Positions 1,486 to 28,454 of a stretch of DNA of 55,058 nucleotides are shown in pieces. Within the stretch, counting starts at the first letter, position 1; each line of letters begins with the position of its first letter. Position numbers and translations under genes: made by a program. The stretch is taken from positions 1 through 55,058 of the forward strand of contig JAFZDT010000139.1 of assembly GCA_017561055.1 (NCBI GenBank). The letters are read 5' to 3'. The stretch is from Erysipelotrichaceae bacterium (GTDB taxonomy: Bacteria > Bacillota_I > Bacilli_A > Erysipelotrichales > Erysipelotrichaceae). The notes beneath the pieces are model-generated. The model saw nothing but the letters and a program-made list of their open reading frames with translations, did not search any database and had not been told where the DNA came from.

Positions 1486-2601
1486 ATGATTATTGGATGT
1501 ACAAAAGAATTAAAGAACCACGAATATCGTGTTGGTTTAATCCCGGATAATGTATATACATTTGTTAAAGAAGGACATAGTGTATATGTTGAAACAAATG
1601 CTGGTGTTGGTGCTGGTTTTACAGATGAAATGTATAAAGAAGCGGGAGCTATTATTTTAGATACTGCTAAAGAAGTATATGATATTGCGGATATGATTAT
1701 TAAGGTTAAAGAACCAATTGAATGTGAATATGATTTATTAAGAGAAAATCAAATTTTATATACATATTTACATTTAGCACCAAACGCTCCATTGACGAAA
1801 GTATTAATGGAAAAAGGTGTGAAAGCAGTAGCATATGAAACAATTACTGATAAAGAAGGAAATCTTCCATGCCTTCGTCCAATGAGCCAAATTGCTGGGC
1901 GTTTAAGTGTGCAACAAGGTGCTAAATATTTGGAAAAGAGTTTTGGTGGAAGAGGAATTCTTTTAGGTGGAGTTCCAGGTGTTGAAAGAGGTAAGATTGT
2001 AATTATTGGTGGAGGAGTTGCAGGTACCTATGCAGCAAAAGCGGCTGTTGGTATTGATGCTCAAGTAACATTATTAGATATTGATTTAAATCGTTTATCA
2101 TATTTAGAAGATGTTTTTGGAGCAAGTGTAACTACTTTATATTCAACGGAAGCGAACATTCGTAAATGTCTTGCGGAAGCGGATTTAGTAATTGGATCTG
2201 TATTGATTCCTGGAGGGAAAGCTCCAAAATTGATTCGTAGAGAACATTTGTCTATTATGAAAAAAGGTGCAGTTATTGTAGATATTGCGATTGACCAAGG
2301 TGGTTGTTGTGAAACAAGTGAAGTAACAACACATCAAGAACCAGTATATATTGTGGATGATGTTGTTCATTATTGTGTAGGGAATATGCCTGGTGCAGTA
2401 CCTTATACTTCTACATTAGCATTAAATAATGCGACATTTAAGTATGCACGTATGATGGCTAATTATGGATTTGAAAAAGCAATTAAAAAGGATGCTGGTT
2501 TGGCAGATGGTGTAAATATTTATGCACACAAATGTGTAAATCAAAATGTAGCAGAATCATTGAATTTGGAATATACAGAACTTGATACAGTATTAGCTTA
2601 G
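1486..2601 (+). CDS. ald: Alanine dehydrogenase
   Basis: The N-terminus MIIGCTKELKNHEYRVGLIP is typical of AlaDH. The Rossmann motif VIIGGGVAGTYAAKAA is present. SD AGAGGTG at 1473-1479 precedes ATG 1486, so the track start 1414 is probably too early. Confidence 0.93.
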   Translation: MIIGCTKELKNHEYRVGLIPDNVYTFVKEGHSVYVETNAGVGAGFTDEMYKEAGAIILDTAKEVYDIADMIIKVKEPIECEYDLLRENQILYTYLHLAPNAPLTKVLMEKGVKAVAYETITDKEGNLPCLRPMSQIAGRLSVQQGAKYLEKSFGGRGILLGGVPGVERGKIVIIGGGVAGTYAAKAAVGIDAQVTLLDIDLNRLSYLEDVFGASVTTLYSTEANIRKCLAEADLVIGSVLIPGGKAPKLIRREHLSIMKKGAVIVDIAIDQGGCCETSEVTTHQEPVYIVDDVVHYCVGNMPGAVPYTSTLALNNATFKYARMMANYGFEKAIKKDAGLADGVNIYAHKCVNQNVAESLNLEYTELDTVLA

Positions 2602-2624
2602 AGCATGAAATTCATGCTCTTTTA
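2601..2624 (+). terminator. Intrinsic terminator after ald
   Basis: GAGCATGAA (2601-2609) pairs with TTCATGCTC (2611-2619), followed by TTTT. Confidence 0.75.
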
Positions 2625-2644
2625 TATTGGTGGATAAGTAATAG

Positions 2645-2706
2645 AAAAAAATTAAAAAAATTTTAAAAAAGTTGTTGACAATATATTTTTATGGTGATAA
2701 TATAAT
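2645..2706 (+). promoter_or_regulatory. Strong sigma-A-type promoter driving the purine-rich RNA locus
   Basis: An A/T-only UP-like tract spans 2645-2670. The -35 is TTGACA at 2675-2680. A 17-nt spacer leads to the extended -10 TGaTAATAT at 2695-2703. An overlapping perfect TATAAT at 2701-2706 would have a 20-nt spacer. The predicted TSS lies in the GGG at 2708-2710. Confidence 0.75.
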
Positions 2707-2771
2707 AGGGCTGCTTCGGGAAGAATGTTCCTAGGTGGCTAAGAGTTATCGAATAGTCGGTATTTCCTAAA

Positions 2772-4298
2772 GCTGAGTAACTAGATCCTAAGGCGCAAGC
2801 TAAGGAGATGAGGTTGTAATTCGTAAGAATGAAGGCTTCGATGCTATGGTAGCTACTGTGAAGCGAGATGGCGTACGGTGAAAGGAATTGCAGTAGGCTG
2901 AGTACCAGAATCGGATGAAAAGCATGGCAACAGGCTGGACGGAAGATGAAGATATGCACCGTGTTAACCGCTACTTGGGGAAACGGGAAGAAGGGAAAAG
3001 AAAGGTAGAAAGCTGAGTAGTCAGAAGCGTACTGAAATGGACGAAAGAAAGTCGAAGGTAAGCTGAAAGGCCGAAAGCGTAAGCATGAGGCAAGCACCTG
3101 TGGAACAGCTGTGGGAGTGAAACAGGGAAGGATGAAAGGAAACAAACAGAATGCCAAGTACTAGAAGCCGGAAGGTTCGCATGGGAAACTAGGTGAATGA
3201 TACGGTGGAAATCGATGAGTCTGAAAGGATGAATCGTAGCACTGGAAATGCCACTGTGAGGCAAGACTAGGAAGAAGGGAACGGAAGAAACAGAATGCTG
3301 AGTAGTTAGAACCTAAAACTGAAGCGGACGAAAGAATGTGGAAGAGGAAGGGGAAAGGCCGAAAGCGCAAGCATAAGGCAAGCACCTGTGGAACGGCTGT
3401 GGGAGTGAAACGGGGAAGGCTGAATGGAAACAAACAGGAAGCTGAGTTCAAGAACCTGGAAGTAAGGCATAAGAGATTAGGCTTGAGAGAAGGGGGAAAT
3501 CGTGAAGGCGAGAGCTAAAACGAGCACTGGTTCAACCACTATGAGGTGAAGCTGGGTAGAGTGGAAAGGAAGAAATAGAGACTGAGTAGTGAGATGCTAA
3601 AGCGGATGTGGACGAAAGGAAGCGGAAGTCATGTGTCTGCCCTAACAAGAAATTGGAATGGGATCGCCTGTGGAACGGCTGCGGGAGCGAAGCAGGGAAG
3701 AACGAAAGGAAACCATCAGTAGTGCCAAGTACAAGAACTAGGATGGAATACATGAGAAATCAGGTAGGAAAGAATGGGGAAGCGTAAGAAGTGAAAACGG
3801 AGGACGTGCACTGAAGTAGCCGCTGTGAGGCGACATCAGGAAGAACTGGAAAGGAAGAAGCAGAAAGCTGAGTAGCTGGAAGTTGAACAGAAGCGGACGA
3901 AAGAATGTGGATGGGAAATGGAAAATATGGAAAGTGAAAACTGGAAGTAAGCACTTGAGGAACGGCTGTGGGAGTGAATCAAGGTAGGGTGAAAGGAAAC
4001 ATACAGTGATGCTGAGTACCGGAAACCAAGAAGGTATGCATGAGAAATCAGGCAGAAGGGAATGGGGAAAACGCAAGAAGCGAAAGCGGAAGGCGAGCAC
4101 TGAAGAAGCCACTGTGAGGCGATATCAGGAAGAAAAGGGAAAAGAAGAAACAGAGGCTGAGTAGTCAGAATCCAAAACTGAAGTGGACGAAAGAAAACTA
4201 AAACAGCGGAGGTCAGAAAGTTGAAAGGAAACGATGTATGTCGTGGAATGGAAGGCCTAGAGAAGTTGGATACGAAAGTTGATAACAAGGGTGAGTCG
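2772..4298 (+). repeat. Tandem array of 11-12 diverged modules (period about 140-145 nt; 285-nt super-repeat of two alternating subtypes)
   Basis: The anchor GCUGAGUA(G/C) or GCCAAGUAC occurs at 2772, 2897, 3012, 3153, 3297, 3441, 3581, 3724, 3867, 4011 and 4156, with a degenerate GGUGAGUCG at 4290. Spacings are 125, 115, 141, 144, 144, 140, 143, 143, 144 and 145 nt. Confidence 0.85.
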
Positions 4299-4365
4299 GA
4301 AGAAGCAGCTGCAGAGATTGAATCCGATGGAAGATGAAAGGAAATTGCAGACGAAGAACAATATG

Positions 4366-4396
4366 AGTCTCAACTGAAAAGTTGAGGCTTTTTTTG
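4366..4396 (+). terminator. Intrinsic terminator of the purine-rich RNA
   Basis: AGUCUCAAC (4366-4374) pairs with GUUGAGGCU (4381-4389). That gives 9 bp including one G-U, a 6-nt loop, then U7. Confidence 0.85.
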
Positions 4397-4493
4397 TGTT
4401 ATAAAGAAGTGTATAGATAAAGACAATATAGTTAGAAAAGTGCTAAAATAAAATTGTAATAACAAATCATGTATTTTAGAAAGGGAATGACAT

Positions 4494-5846
4494 ATGGGTA
4501 GTAATAAAAGTATTAGTATCTTAAGAGATGCGCCTGTTGGAAAGGCTTTGTGGTATTTATCGTTGCCAGCTGTGCTTACAACACTGGTTGGTACAATACA
4601 CAATTTAATTGATGGTATATATGTTAGTTCTCTTAATGATAATGCAATGATTGCGGCAACAACAGTAGCTTTACCGGTAATTGTTGTTTCTGAGGCGATT
4701 GGTGAAGGAATTGGTGTTGGTACTGCTAGTTATTTAGGTAGACTTTTGGGGGCTAAAGATGAAAGTAAGGTTGAACGATTAATTGCGACTTCTATAACTT
4801 TAATGTTTTTAGTTTCAATCATTTTGTTAGTGGCGACAATTGTGTTTTTAAGACCGGTTATATCTTTCTTTACTACCGATCCAATGGTTATTAAGCATTC
4901 ATATGATTATCTTTTAATCTTAATGTGCTCTTCTATTTTTACAATTTCAAAACAAGTAGTTTCTAATATGCTTCGTGCTGCTGGTGATGTGAATTATCCA
5001 ATGAAGATTATTATTGCTAGTATTGTAGTTAATATTGTTTTAAATCCAATATTTATGTTTGATTTTGGTTTTGGATTAAAGATTAGAGGTGCGGCTATTG
5101 CGACAGTTTTAGCTGAAGTATTTGCGTCTTTTGCGATGTTTTATCGTCTTATTTTTAGAGATGATGTAATTAAATGGAGATTAGGTCATTTTGTACTTTG
5201 TATAAATTCCATAAAAGAAATTATTAATGTAGGTATACCAGTATTCATTAGAAATGGATTATCATCAATATCTTATGGTCTATTTGCGAAATCATCTGGT
5301 ATGTTTGGTACAGATTTCTTAGCTGCGAGTGGATTGTCTAGAAAAGGTGAATATTTTTCTCGTTTTGTAATTATGGGAGTTGCGCAAGGATATCAATCAT
5401 TTGCGGCTTATAACTATGGTGCTAAAAATAAACAACGTCTTATGGATGGCTTGAAGATGGCATTGAAGTTTACAATTGGGTATGGCTTCTTGATGGGAGG
5501 GTTCTTCCTATTCTTCCCACATGTTTTCATGCGTATATTAACAAGTGATGCGAATTTGATTGCGCTTGGTAAAAATATGTTAATTGGATATGCGATTTCT
5601 GTTCCGTTTGTTGCGATTTATCAAATTTTAGCTTACAATTTCCAAGCATTAGGAAAAGGTAAATTATCGTTTATTACTTCAGTATTAAGACAAGGAATTG
5701 TATACTGTCCTTTAGTAACTATATTACCTCGTTTATTTGGTATGACAGGAATGATTATTGTACAACCAATTTGTGATTTATGTAGTGCTTTGGTTGTCTT
5801 GTTCTTATCTAGATCTATCATTAAAGAAATACAAGCAATGGAATAA
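4494..5846 (+). CDS. MATE family efflux transporter
   Basis: 450 aa with a 12-TM-like hydrophobic profile. The N-terminus (PVGKALWYLSLPAVLTTLVGTIHNLIDGIYV) is typical of the MatE family. Confidence 0.85.
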   Translation: MGSNKSISILRDAPVGKALWYLSLPAVLTTLVGTIHNLIDGIYVSSLNDNAMIAATTVALPVIVVSEAIGEGIGVGTASYLGRLLGAKDESKVERLIATSITLMFLVSIILLVATIVFLRPVISFFTTDPMVIKHSYDYLLILMCSSIFTISKQVVSNMLRAAGDVNYPMKIIIASIVVNIVLNPIFMFDFGFGLKIRGAAIATVLAEVFASFAMFYRLIFRDDVIKWRLGHFVLCINSIKEIINVGIPVFIRNGLSSISYGLFAKSSGMFGTDFLAASGLSRKGEYFSRFVIMGVAQGYQSFAAYNYGAKNKQRLMDGLKMALKFTIGYGFLMGGFFLFFPHVFMRILTSDANLIALGKNMLIGYAISVPFVAIYQILAYNFQALGKGKLSFITSVLRQGIVYCPLVTILPRLFGMTGMIIVQPICDLCSALVVLFLSRSIIKEIQAME

Positions 5847-17039: not shown

Positions 17040-17075
17040 AAATGTCATTATAAATGTCACTATAAATGTCACTAT
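17040..17075. repeat. Three tandem 12-nt direct repeats (AAATGTCAYTAT) in the upstream region of the AlbA_2 gene
   Basis: 17040-17051 is AAATGTCATTAT. 17052-17063 and 17064-17075 are both AAATGTCACTAT. The array starts 35 nt upstream of start codon 17005 on the minus strand. Confidence 0.9.
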
Positions 17076-17245
17076 AAAAACTATTTTTCTTTAGGATTAT
17101 TATACTATAGACAAAAATGAGGAAAGCATAAACGAGAAGTGGCTTCTAGATGCTAAAAATTATTTAACAATCGTATTTCAAGAGTTATAAATAAAATAAT
17201 CATAGTATATAATGATTCTACGAATATAACATGGAGGTATAGTCT

Positions 17246-27725: not shown

Positions 27726-28454
27726 ATGGCAAATAATAAGAGTTTAGATTTAAAAGACATTATCAATGTAGCGACTGCTTTATCACAACAAGAACAATCA
27801 AATAATAAGAATCAATCAATTAAGATGGTTTCTGCGTTAAGTTCACTTGTGAAAGCGCCTGAAAAAGAAGAAGAGGAAGAAGAAAAATCTGTTTCATCTT
27901 TATTACAAGCTGCGAAAACAGATGCAAAGGATACAAATATTATTTCTAATTTATTAGAAAATCTTGGTTTGAGTAAGAGTCAAGAAAAGCAAGAAGAAGA
28001 GGAATTGATTGCTTTATTAGAAAGCAAGGGATACAGTGTTGATAAAGAATCAGCAATTGATACTGGTGCTGTTTCTGCAGCATTAGTTGCTTTAGCTGCT
28101 TATGCAAAAGAAAATGACTTGTTGGATAAGATTGCGGATTTATTTGAAGAAGAAACTAAGAAAAAGAAAAAAACAACTAAGAAAAAATCAACGACAAAGA
28201 AATCAACAGCTAAAAAAACTACAACCAAGAAGTCAACAACTGCTAAAAAATCTACGGCTAAGAAATCAACAACAGCTAAAAAGACAACAGCTAAGAAGAG
28301 TACTTCTACTGCTAAAAAATCTACAGCCAAGAAGAGTACAACTGCTAAAAAAACAAGTACAGCCAAAAAGTCTACAACTACAAAGAAATCAACTACAGCT
28401 AAAAAGACAACAGCTGCAAAGAAAACTACAACTAAAAAATCTACGAAGAAATAA
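27726..28454 (+). CDS. Bipartite protein with an acidic N-terminal half and a Lys/Thr/Ser/Ala-repeat basic tail (histone-H1-like composition)
   Basis: 242 aa with E-runs (EKEEEEEEK, QEKQEEEEL). About 100 C-terminal residues consist of (S/T)T(A)KK units. SD AAGGAG lies upstream. Confidence 0.7.
   Translation: MANNKSLDLKDIINVATALSQQEQSNNKNQSIKMVSALSSLVKAPEKEEEEEEKSVSSLLQAAKTDAKDTNIISNLLENLGLSKSQEKQEEEELIALLESKGYSVDKESAIDTGAVSAALVALAAYAKENDLLDKIADLFEEETKKKKKTTKKKSTTKKSTAKKTTTKKSTTAKKSTAKKSTTAKKTTAKKSTSTAKKSTAKKSTTAKKTSTAKKSTTTKKSTTAKKTTAAKKTTTKKSTKK
28160..28451 (+). repeat. Imperfect in-frame tandem repeats encoding the (S/T)TAKK tail
   Basis: Recurrent units such as GCTAAAAAATCTAC(A/G)GC(C/T)AAGAA(G/A) are visible by eye. 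They generate artefactual ORFs in the other frame and on the other strand. Confidence 0.85.

Follow-up and report, generated by a model that had tools for sequence, protein, structure and literature searches.

The window analysed here, a 55,058-nt stretch of Erysipelotrichaceae DNA (contig JAFZDT010000139.1), carries on its + strand four copies of a conserved string that a preliminary description of the sequence had drawn as a local hairpin, CUGU[GGGAGYGAA]ACAG. Comparison with related loci indicates that the variable 3′ arm of this hairpin co-varies with a strand 21–25 nt further upstream, forming a helix of five base pairs (bp), CCUGU/ACAGG, and we regard this reassignment as very probably correct. 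The best explanation for the whole, which we hold with rather more confidence than doubt, is that the strings are the type I apical element of a 285-nt domain occurring four times in a free-standing non-coding RNA (ncRNA), that their CUGY letters take part in a pseudoknot, and that the RNA serves as a scaffold; its parts carry different weights.

Pairing partners of the type I strings

The four strings lie on the + strand at 3109–3125 (CTGTGGGAGTGAAACAG / CUGUGGGAGUGAAACAG), 3397–3413 (CTGTGGGAGTGAAACGG / CUGUGGGAGUGAAACGG), 3679–3695 (CTGCGGGAGCGAAGCAG / CUGCGGGAGCGAAGCAG) and 3966–3982 (CTGTGGGAGTGAATCAA / CUGUGGGAGUGAAUCAA), and the preliminary description had given all of them exactly. Their spacing of 288, 282 and 287 nt means that they represent one position in four tandem repeat units and not four independent events; the window copies are paralogues and do not count as independent observations. 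Relatives were collected with the pattern GGGAGYGAA-N12-GAAWGGAAAC, which constrains neither arm of the proposed stem. A scan of one genome per GTDB species returned 42 loci, about 30 of them real (purine-rich, with copies about 285 nt apart), a metagenome scan contributed no more than 14 short contigs, and an nhmmer census yielded 107 type I cores from 45 loci, which reduce to 70 distinct 42-nt cores. Column numbers refer to this core (for copy 1, window position = 3090 + column). Among the 70 distinct copies the conservation reported for GGGAGYGAA is far above chance, with G23–G27, G29, A30 and A31 invariant or nearly so; its sixth position is U or C, and the loop, which had been called purine-only, is hence purine-rich with one pyrimidine.

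The proposed CUGU/ACAG stem corresponds to columns 19–22 paired with 32–35. Its 5′ arm, CUGY, is fixed in all copies except for the Y, while its 3′ arm appears as ACAG, ACGG, ACCG, GCCG, UCAG, GCAG, UCAA, ACAA, GCGA, GCUG or AUCG. Over 50 sequences, 85% of the cells are paired, compared with 83% in shuffles, and 30 cells are unpaired; U20 stands opposite C or U in 17 of the 70 copies (pair 20–34), Y22 is unpaired in 22 of the 70 (pair 22–32), and all four pairs form in 30 of the 65 well-aligned distinct copies. When co-variation was checked on the orthologues, the specific stem did not hold, as the 3′ arm varies with no compensation from the fixed CUGY, an outcome that the preliminary description had itself set as refuting.

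The same 3′ arm is accounted for by the upstream strand instead. In this outer helix (columns 7–11 with 32–36) the combinations include CCUGU/ACAGG, CCGGU/ACCGG, CCUGA/UCAGG and CUUGA/UCAAG, and further CUUGU/ACAAG, CUCGU/GCGAG, CCAGU/GCUGG and UCUGA/UCAGA. The cells are paired in 98.8% of cases against 81.5% in shuffles, a value that 0 of 500 shuffles reached, and in at most 59% in every slid register; double-sided changes are found in four of the five pairs (34 cells), and the co-variation score is 0.464 against 0.148 for shuffles. Four pairs form in all 70 distinct cores and the closing pair in 64, with pair 9–34 read as UA 50 times, GC 15, UG twice, AU twice and CG once. The helix is complete in 62 of the 65 copies that gave 30 for the CUGU/ACAG hairpin. 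RNAalifold, run on 55 whole units, independently predicts the outer helix and not that hairpin; a strict helix scan (stack-finder) finds no helix in the whole repeat that is longer or better supported; and in all four window copies it belongs to the fold of minimum free energy.

In copy 1 the type I apical element spans 3097–3126, with CCUGU (3097–3101) pairing with ACAGG (3122–3126) around the module GGAACAGCUGUGGGAGUGAA (3102–3121). Copy 2 occupies 3385–3414 (CCUGU 3385–3389, ACGGG 3410–3414, module 3390–3409) and copy 3 occupies 3667–3696 (CCUGU 3667–3671, GCAGG 3692–3696, module 3672–3691), where the A to G change merely turns the closing U-A into U-G. Copy 4 (3954–3983; CUUGA 3954–3958, UCAAG 3979–3983, module 3959–3978) had been described as having lost its pairing; in fact, compared with copy 1 its helix has undergone two compensatory changes, C-G to U-A and U-A to A-U, and this seemingly broken copy is the key to the correct helix. 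The idea of decay toward the 3′ end fares no better, since the helix of unit 4 is intact and the unit shows an identity of 0.79–0.83 to the last unit in other genomes, compared with 0.67–0.69 to its siblings. As for the U-A to C-G swap noted in copy 3, the letters are real but independent compensation is not borne out: CUGC is combined with GCAG in 11 of the 70 distinct copies, and because eight of these 11 share one orthologue group, marked by AUCAC, the swap is best counted as one inherited event. In other CUGC copies the C is faced by U, and also by A once three poorly aligned copies are included.

A static local hairpin presenting its 9-nt loop is thus very improbable. Four Watson-Crick or G-U pairs can be drawn for it in window copies 1–3, it can draw on the 11 copies with CUGC and GCAG, and the naive association of C22 with G32 gives p = 0.02. 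These points are outweighed by a fixed 5′ arm facing a variable one, by pairing close to that of shuffles, by the origin of the C-G swap mainly in one orthologue group and by the perfect co-variation of the 3′ arm with another strand; besides, in no case is the hairpin the fold of minimum free energy. CUGU-GGA-ACAG (3098–3108), a third local pairing, was also rejected (83% paired against 83.8% in shuffles, and no double changes). The wrong partner was picked because three different ACAG-like tetrads surround one CUGU, and the case shows that complementarity within paralogous repeats of one molecule can mislead about the partner.

Lobes of the repeat unit and folds of the conserved module

Each unit consists of two half-modules of about 143 nt that begin with GCYRAGUA, the type I and type II lobes. 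Both follow the plan AGCAC, outer helix, apical hairpin, GGAAG, the type I element being likewise flanked by AGCAC...GGAAG. In the type II lobe the outer helix CYGR/YCRG and the apical hairpin GCC[ACUGUGA]GGC both co-vary. The type II apical element of unit 1 lies at 3242–3270 (outer helix CUGG/CUAG, inner hairpin GCC[ACUGUGA]GGC at 3250–3262), and its equivalents on the same strand are at 3527–3555, 3811–3839 and 4100–4128. About 33 nt downstream of this loop's CUGU, directly before the next GCUGAGUAG, lies the linker ACAG with which it pairs. This type II pseudoknot is 95% paired, with double changes in three of its four pairs and nearly all mismatches at the fourth. The 144 distinct elements comprise CUGU/ACAG (80), CUGU/GCAG (20), CUGC/GCAG (13), CCGN, which is matched by NCGG in 11 of 11 cases, and the rarer CUAU/AUAG (1), CUAC/GUAG (1) and CUGA/UCAG (2). 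In the window, CUGU 3254–3257 pairs with ACAG 3290–3293 in unit 1, CUAU 3539–3542 with AUAG 3575–3578 in unit 2 (a compensated variant), CUGU 3823–3826 with GCAG 3860–3863 in unit 3 and CUGU 4112–4115 with ACAG 4150–4153 in unit 4, all on the + strand; the 5′ domain of the RNA contains a similar, again compensated, pseudoknot between an apical loop CUAC (2971–2974) and a linker GUAG (3005–3008). A loop-loop pairing between ACRG of type I and CUGU of type II was considered and discarded, as the rare CUAU and CUGA are compensated by the linker and not there.

The type I lobe is closed by a long-range helix in which CU of GCUGAGUAG pairs with GG of GAAAGG, and G-Y-Y with R-R-Y. In unit 1 it spans 3013–3139 on the + strand (CU 3013–3014 with GG 3138–3139, GUC 3020–3022 with GAU 3131–3133), with equivalents in units 2–4, and its pair 57–193 is CG in 27 cases and UA in 25. 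The helix flanks an internal loop, GAGUA/GAAA. An AGUA/GAA signature, which characterizes the sarcin-ricin or loop E (bulged-G) motif, is present at the base of each half-module with co-varying flanks; the resemblance is one of sequence only, and it concerns the base of the lobe and not the CUGU[GGGAGYGAA] element. For the closure of the type II lobe, the proposal made by RNAalifold conflicts with helix H1.

In the whole-unit model, with its 32 pairs, 96.1% of cells are paired, in comparison with 81.7% in shuffles and 25–43% in slid registers, and 26 of the pairs show compensatory changes, which sustains the broader claims of the preliminary description that a selected RNA structural element lies here and that the locus works at the RNA level. 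Of the pyrimidines, 44% lie within the modelled pairs, compared with 14% of the purines, and 83% of the other positions are purines. Because G-U pairs are frequent in the co-varying helices, the purine-rich + strand can be taken as the RNA strand.

Enclosed by the type I outer helix is a near-invariant 20-nt module, GGAACRGCUGYGGGAGYGAA, of which 13 positions are fixed in all 70 distinct copies. One type I copy at another locus (L021:3809–3861) is a natural variant, in which a clean 11-nt deletion has removed GGAACRGCUGY and the outer helix and GGGAGCGAA are retained (CACCUGU-GGGAGCGAA-GCAGG). When the two lobes are lined up by eye on CUGY, with no alignment tool involved, CUGY of type I falls where type II has its CUGU. 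Judged by homology with the pseudoknot of type II, CUGY (3109–3112, 3397–3400, 3679–3682 and 3966–3969 in copies 1–4) may therefore pair with a downstream linker NCAG (3146–3149, 3434–3437, 3716–3719 and 4003–4006), a proposal to which we assign a little less than an even chance. The linker NCAG is invariant and follows the Y at a spacing of 34 nt in 91 of 91 copies, and the fourth pair is U-A in all 67 copies with U. With this pairing, the conserved purine stretches GGAACR and GGGAGYGAA would lie exposed. Formally, both pairings resemble H-type pseudoknots, in which a hairpin loop pairs with a downstream single strand, as the type II loop CUGU does with the linker ACAG; they differ in that a 4-bp helix recurs about ten times per molecule in a repeating lattice, of which the type I part is deduced.

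The competing reading of the module does without a pseudoknot and is somewhat less probable still. It consists of a local 3-bp GCU/AGY mini-helix with GYGGG as its pentaloop; below the mini-helix would lie an asymmetric internal loop of purines, GGAACR/GAA, possibly with tandem G-A pairs. RNAalifold predicts GCU/AGY, and so does minimum-free-energy folding of every one of the four window copies; G18–Y28 stays compatible (GC 51, GU 17, GA 2), and the one-nucleotide insertions of divergent copies (GGGAGCAGAA, GGGAGCGGAA) fall outside it. The mini-helix has, however, only three pairs, two of which are invariant and hence show no co-variation, and the homologous type II lobe uses the CUGY letters, at equal spacing in the CUGY-anchored comparison by eye, for a pseudoknot that does co-vary. 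A kink-turn formed by GGAACR/GAA was rejected on order: read 5′ to 3′ along one strand, a kink-turn has a C-stem, a 3-nt bulge, the G-A and A-G pairs and an NC-stem, whereas the possible G-A pairs here precede the 3-nt bulge. No complementary target for GCUGYGGGAG was found in the 55-kb window beyond the antisense strand of the element itself.

Several observations weigh against the pseudoknotted domain RNA that we favour. Where Y is C, the type I pairing is usually uncompensated (the partner is A in 10 copies, U in 10 and G in 4), and its core, CUG/CAG, is invariant, so that co-variation cannot test it. Thermodynamic folding of the isolated element prefers the GCU/AGY mini-hairpin, with a program that cannot model pseudoknots, and the folding z-scores of the isolated 42-mers are not significant. 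The modelled pairs involve about 22% of the unit positions. Many of the sequences come from metagenome-assembled genomes (MAGs) or short contigs, and units that are paralogues cannot be counted as independent samples. Finally, the ends of the transcript follow from promoter and terminator consensus only.

The RNA gene and its relatives

The four structured units, 285–290 nt each, lie in tandem between a unique 5′ and a unique 3′ domain of a predicted transcript of about 1.69 kb (2710–4397, + strand) that contains no open reading frame (ORF) above chance. A promoter at 2675–2703 matches the consensus at 10 of 12 positions (–35 TTGACA at 2675–2680, a 17-nt spacer and a TG-extended –10, TGaTAATAT, at 2695–2703) and is preceded by an A-tract (2645–2670). 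The 5′ domain (2710–2989) is kept across loci and contains two GCUGAGUA-headed half-modules. It is followed by unit 1 (2990–3277, a type I and a type II lobe), unit 2 (3278–3562), unit 3 (3563–3847) and unit 4 (3848–4137), which corresponds by positional orthology to the last unit elsewhere, and by the 3′ domain (4138–4364; ...GGUGAGUCGGAAGAAGCAGCUGCAGAGAUUGAAUCCG...GAAAGGAAAUUGCAGACGAA), which is also kept across loci. An intrinsic terminator (4365–4397) with an 11-bp stem, a GAAA loop and a U-run ends the gene, all these features being on the + strand. The RNA interval is 70% purine and has a G+C content of 47%, compared with 32% for the window overall. It falls in an ORF-free interval between the alanine dehydrogenase gene (ald, 1486–2601), which has its own terminator at 2600–2620, and a gene for a MATE transporter (4494–5846). 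The longest stop-free run is 70 codons on the + strand and 177 codons on the antisense strand; antisense ORFs of 124–164 amino acids were dismissed as an artefact of composition, for which the expected stop-free length has a mean of 161 and a maximum of 365. The 5′-terminal GCUGCUUC (2710–2717) is complementary to GAAGCAGC (4305–4312) in the 3′ domain, 1.6 kb away, and GCUGCUU/AAGCAGC, noticed by eye, could close the ends of the window RNA; in other loci, the 5′ strand of this candidate helix seems to form a local hairpin instead.

The records of the relatives are titled Erysipelotrichaceae or Erysipelotrichales, Oscillospiraceae, Oscillibacter, Lachnospiraceae and Clostridia MAGs, and their sources are the hindgut of goat, sheep, water buffalo, roe deer and water deer; two very short contigs binned as Verrucomicrobiales and Methanocorpusculum are probably mis-binned. 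Family members measure 1.2–2.0 kb and have 2–5 units. All 10 complete loci keep a promoter block, AAAAAAGT-TGTTGACA-N17-TG.TA.(T/C)ATA, together with the 5′ and the 3′ domain, and 9 of the 10 keep the terminator. In the locus that lacks it (L017), tRNA-Lys(CTT) and tRNA-Glu(CTC) begin 11 nt after the RNA (L017:7540–7693). At another, tRNA-His and a second transfer RNA, called tRNA-Phe(AAA) by ARAGORN, lie upstream of the RNA (L040:842–993). The arrangement at these two loci hints that in some genomes the RNA is transcribed or processed together with stable RNAs. The flanking genes are unrelated housekeeping genes and differ in every locus (for example enolase/FemAB, sugar transferase, Na/Pi cotransporter, esterases, M18 peptidase, GMP synthase and SpoIVB), the flanks having a G+C content of 32–58% against 45–57% for the RNA, and at least one MAG contains two loci in different neighbourhoods (L024 and L026). 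We are highly confident that these loci constitute a new family of free-standing RNA genes.

Units at the same position in different genomes share an identity of 0.72–0.98, compared with 0.57–0.72 for units within one molecule (the window and the Erysipelotrichaceae locus L024). For the window units, the values are 0.72–0.83 to the same-position unit elsewhere and 0.61–0.69 to their siblings; in one Oscillospiraceae locus two sibling units reach 0.83, yet they are closer to units of other genomes. This positional orthology implies that the array is old and each unit has an identity of its own, and it speaks against simple redundancy as well as against 3′ decay.

We searched for known counterparts of this RNA without success. 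In Rfam 15, cmscan at E ≤ 1 gave three chance-level matches over 2400–4700, and at the gathering threshold only flanking tRNAs were returned for the window and seven further loci, the RNA itself scoring too low for every family, including ROOL, GOLLD, OLE, HEARO, raiA, 6S and tmRNA. A viral-contig scan and BLAST searches against phages and plasmids yielded no matches, and no transposase or integrase was detected among the 20 flanking ORFs scanned against Pfam. A phage-, plasmid- or transposon-borne RNA was accordingly discarded as a candidate, the flanks being housekeeping genes. Keyword and exact-string searches of the literature (subscription-only literature being outside their scope) found no description, and none came up when the 224-motif paper was looked through. 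It fits the descriptive class of large ornate structured ncRNAs (more than 500 nt, no ORF, many co-varying helices and conserved unpaired nucleotides), within which it is set apart by its tandem-domain construction, and it is apparently undescribed.

Three features of individual loci deserve mention. Five of the 10 complete loci (L003, L007, L036, L037 and L040), namely the Oscillospiraceae ones and one from Erysipelotrichales (L007), have an extra hairpin domain of about 60–80 nt between the 3′ domain and the terminator, with the sequence ...GAGUGGAGGNCGAAAGNCUGAnACCACCRCUUrAUG..., which the window and three loci of the Erysipelotrichaceae type lack. A 35-kb contig (JAZREI010000009.1; L006 and L022) has the same truncated RNA at both ends, inverted and each time beside a 338-amino-acid ORF, which in L006, the one scanned, is a SpoIVB-like S55 peptidase according to Pfam; the arrangement is either an inverted duplication or an assembly artefact. 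Among Logan contigs of the window organism, 2 of 10 that carry the MATE gene (L044 and L045) begin 128–141 nt upstream of it, near the 3′ end of the RNA; these starts fit a repeat that breaks short-read assemblies, so that copy numbers in MAGs are probably underestimated.

Possible roles and known systems compared

We envisage a stable, strongly expressed structural RNA, although with low confidence in each step of the mechanism. Every repeat would fold into a two-lobed knot of short helices whose unpaired bases are nearly all purines, and the same invariant purine module would offer a surface for docking 2–5 times in each molecule. What docks there might lie elsewhere in the RNA itself, so that a compact pseudo-symmetric particle results, or might be a molecule in trans. 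A protein- or RNA-docking role for the purine-rich module, the former of which the preliminary description had already raised, is conceivable. A stable multivalent scaffold or docking function is the best fit we can offer because of the strong promoter, the occasional linkage to tRNAs, the position-specific pseudoknotted lattice and the single near-invariant purine module per unit, and we put it forward tentatively.

The main functional rival is a protein sponge or decoy that would sequester an RNA-binding protein, of the CsrA, Hfq or KH-domain type, on repeated purine-rich sites of which the type I module would be one. We consider it unlikely. Multivalency, with 2–5 identical modules per RNA and purine-rich single-stranded linkers, as well as a strong promoter and a variable number of repeats, would suit a sponge, and these traits are also compatible with docking. 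Nevertheless, GGA is not enriched (80 observed against 69 ± 6 expected from composition) and lies outside the hairpin loops, which read GYGGG, ACUGUGA and GAAA; the units are not interchangeable sites but elaborate orthologues, each specific to its position; and no gene for a candidate protein is linked to the RNA. CsrB and RsmZ RNAs repeat hairpins of about 10–20 nt with GGA in the loop. The window RNA shares with them its repetitiveness, the many copies of a conserved purine-rich motif and the resulting multivalency, and differs in that its repeat is a 285-nt multi-helix domain; with GGA neither enriched nor in the loops, a sponge of the CsrB/RsmZ type was rejected.

The loop had also been likened to a Shine-Dalgarno sequence. 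As a mimic, GGGAG would be shown to 30S subunits, either for translation of a small ORF or for ribosome sequestration, and it does contain GGAG, the 4-nt core complementary to the anti-Shine-Dalgarno, with an AUG 14 nt downstream in copy 1. This AUG, however, sits in the variable 3′ strand of helix H2 (GAU, GCU, AAC and GGU in the four copies), and no start codon is conserved downstream; the + strand of the window RNA has no ORF longer than 70 codons, unit lengths (282–288 nt) are not consistently multiples of three, and GGGAG or its neighbours are partly structured in both candidate folds. We find the mimic barely credible, and a translation initiation element or mini-ORF was rejected, as neither start codon nor ORF is conserved. 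Equally remote is the idea that the RNA does not act in trans at all, being a leader of the MATE gene, a protein-coding gene in antisense, a DNA-level repeat or the RNA of a mobile element. The MATE transporter gene does lie downstream on the same strand, and the antisense strand does have its stop-free run of 177 codons. Against a leader, the RNA has its own terminator and different flanking genes in every locus; the antisense run has the length that composition predicts; the co-variation, which includes G-U pairs, is strand-specific; and neither the viral, phage and plasmid searches nor the 20 flanking ORFs scanned gave any sign of a mobile element. A riboswitch or other cis-acting leader was dropped on the same grounds, namely the independent terminator and the lack of a conserved downstream gene family. 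The window RNA does resemble tandem riboswitch aptamer arrays, such as tandem glycine aptamers, in its head-to-tail structured domains within one transcript (reviewed in PMC9481103); unlike them, it is followed by no conserved gene, ends in a terminator of its own, has flanks that vary, and consists of units that are much larger and also more numerous.

To our knowledge, few structured bacterial RNAs above 1 kb are known besides ribosomal RNA, and each such large RNA (OLE, GOLLD, ROOL) has revealed an unexpected RNA architecture. With these three the present RNA shares its length (here 1.2–2.0 kb), the absence of coding capacity, dense conservation and a free-standing gene in Bacillota, as well as pseudoknots, numerous short helices that co-vary, and unpaired purines that are conserved. 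The first sighting of ROOL was likewise in rumen data (PMC5737381), and ROOL, GOLLD and OLE form multi-protomer RNA-only assemblies through A-minor contacts and kissing loops (PMC12286853). Unlike them, RNAs of this family have 2–5 tandem 285-nt domains per transcript and not one oligomerising fold, their compact particle is hypothetical, and the searches matched them to no Rfam 15 model and no viral contig, phage or plasmid. The present RNA shows traits of stable RNAs, namely the near-consensus promoter with an A-tract and, in some genomes, co-located tRNAs. A bolder proposal, which we consider doubtful, is that it represents a new class of large RNA, restricted to herbivore-gut Bacillota and expressed like a stable RNA, which would build in cis, from its 2–5 pseudoknotted domains, a multi-protomer RNA-only architecture like that of ROOL or GOLLD, with the 20-nt module as the docking site between domains or for a partner. 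Be that as it may, the design is unusual, a tandem array of position-specific pseudoknotted domains whose unpaired bases are almost all purines, and more than 100 domain copies from 45 loci fix many helices and two kinds of tertiary pairing. This ready comparative data set makes the RNA tractable for cryo-electron microscopy, chemical probing and tests of RNA structure prediction, and the corrected element and the RNA around it should be of interest to RNA structural biologists.

Other repeats occur elsewhere in the window. A 242-amino-acid ORF (27726–28454, + strand) has a C-terminal tail of about 95 residues built of (S/T)(T)AKK repeats, encoded by 33- and 69-nt tandem repeats at 28182–28432; this lysine-rich tail has the look of histone H1 or a nucleoid protein, and of the two further purine-rich stretches of the window, one is due to this ORF. 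At 17040–17078 lies a 12-nt tandem repeat that is nearly perfect, AAATGTCACTAT × 3.2 (96% matches).

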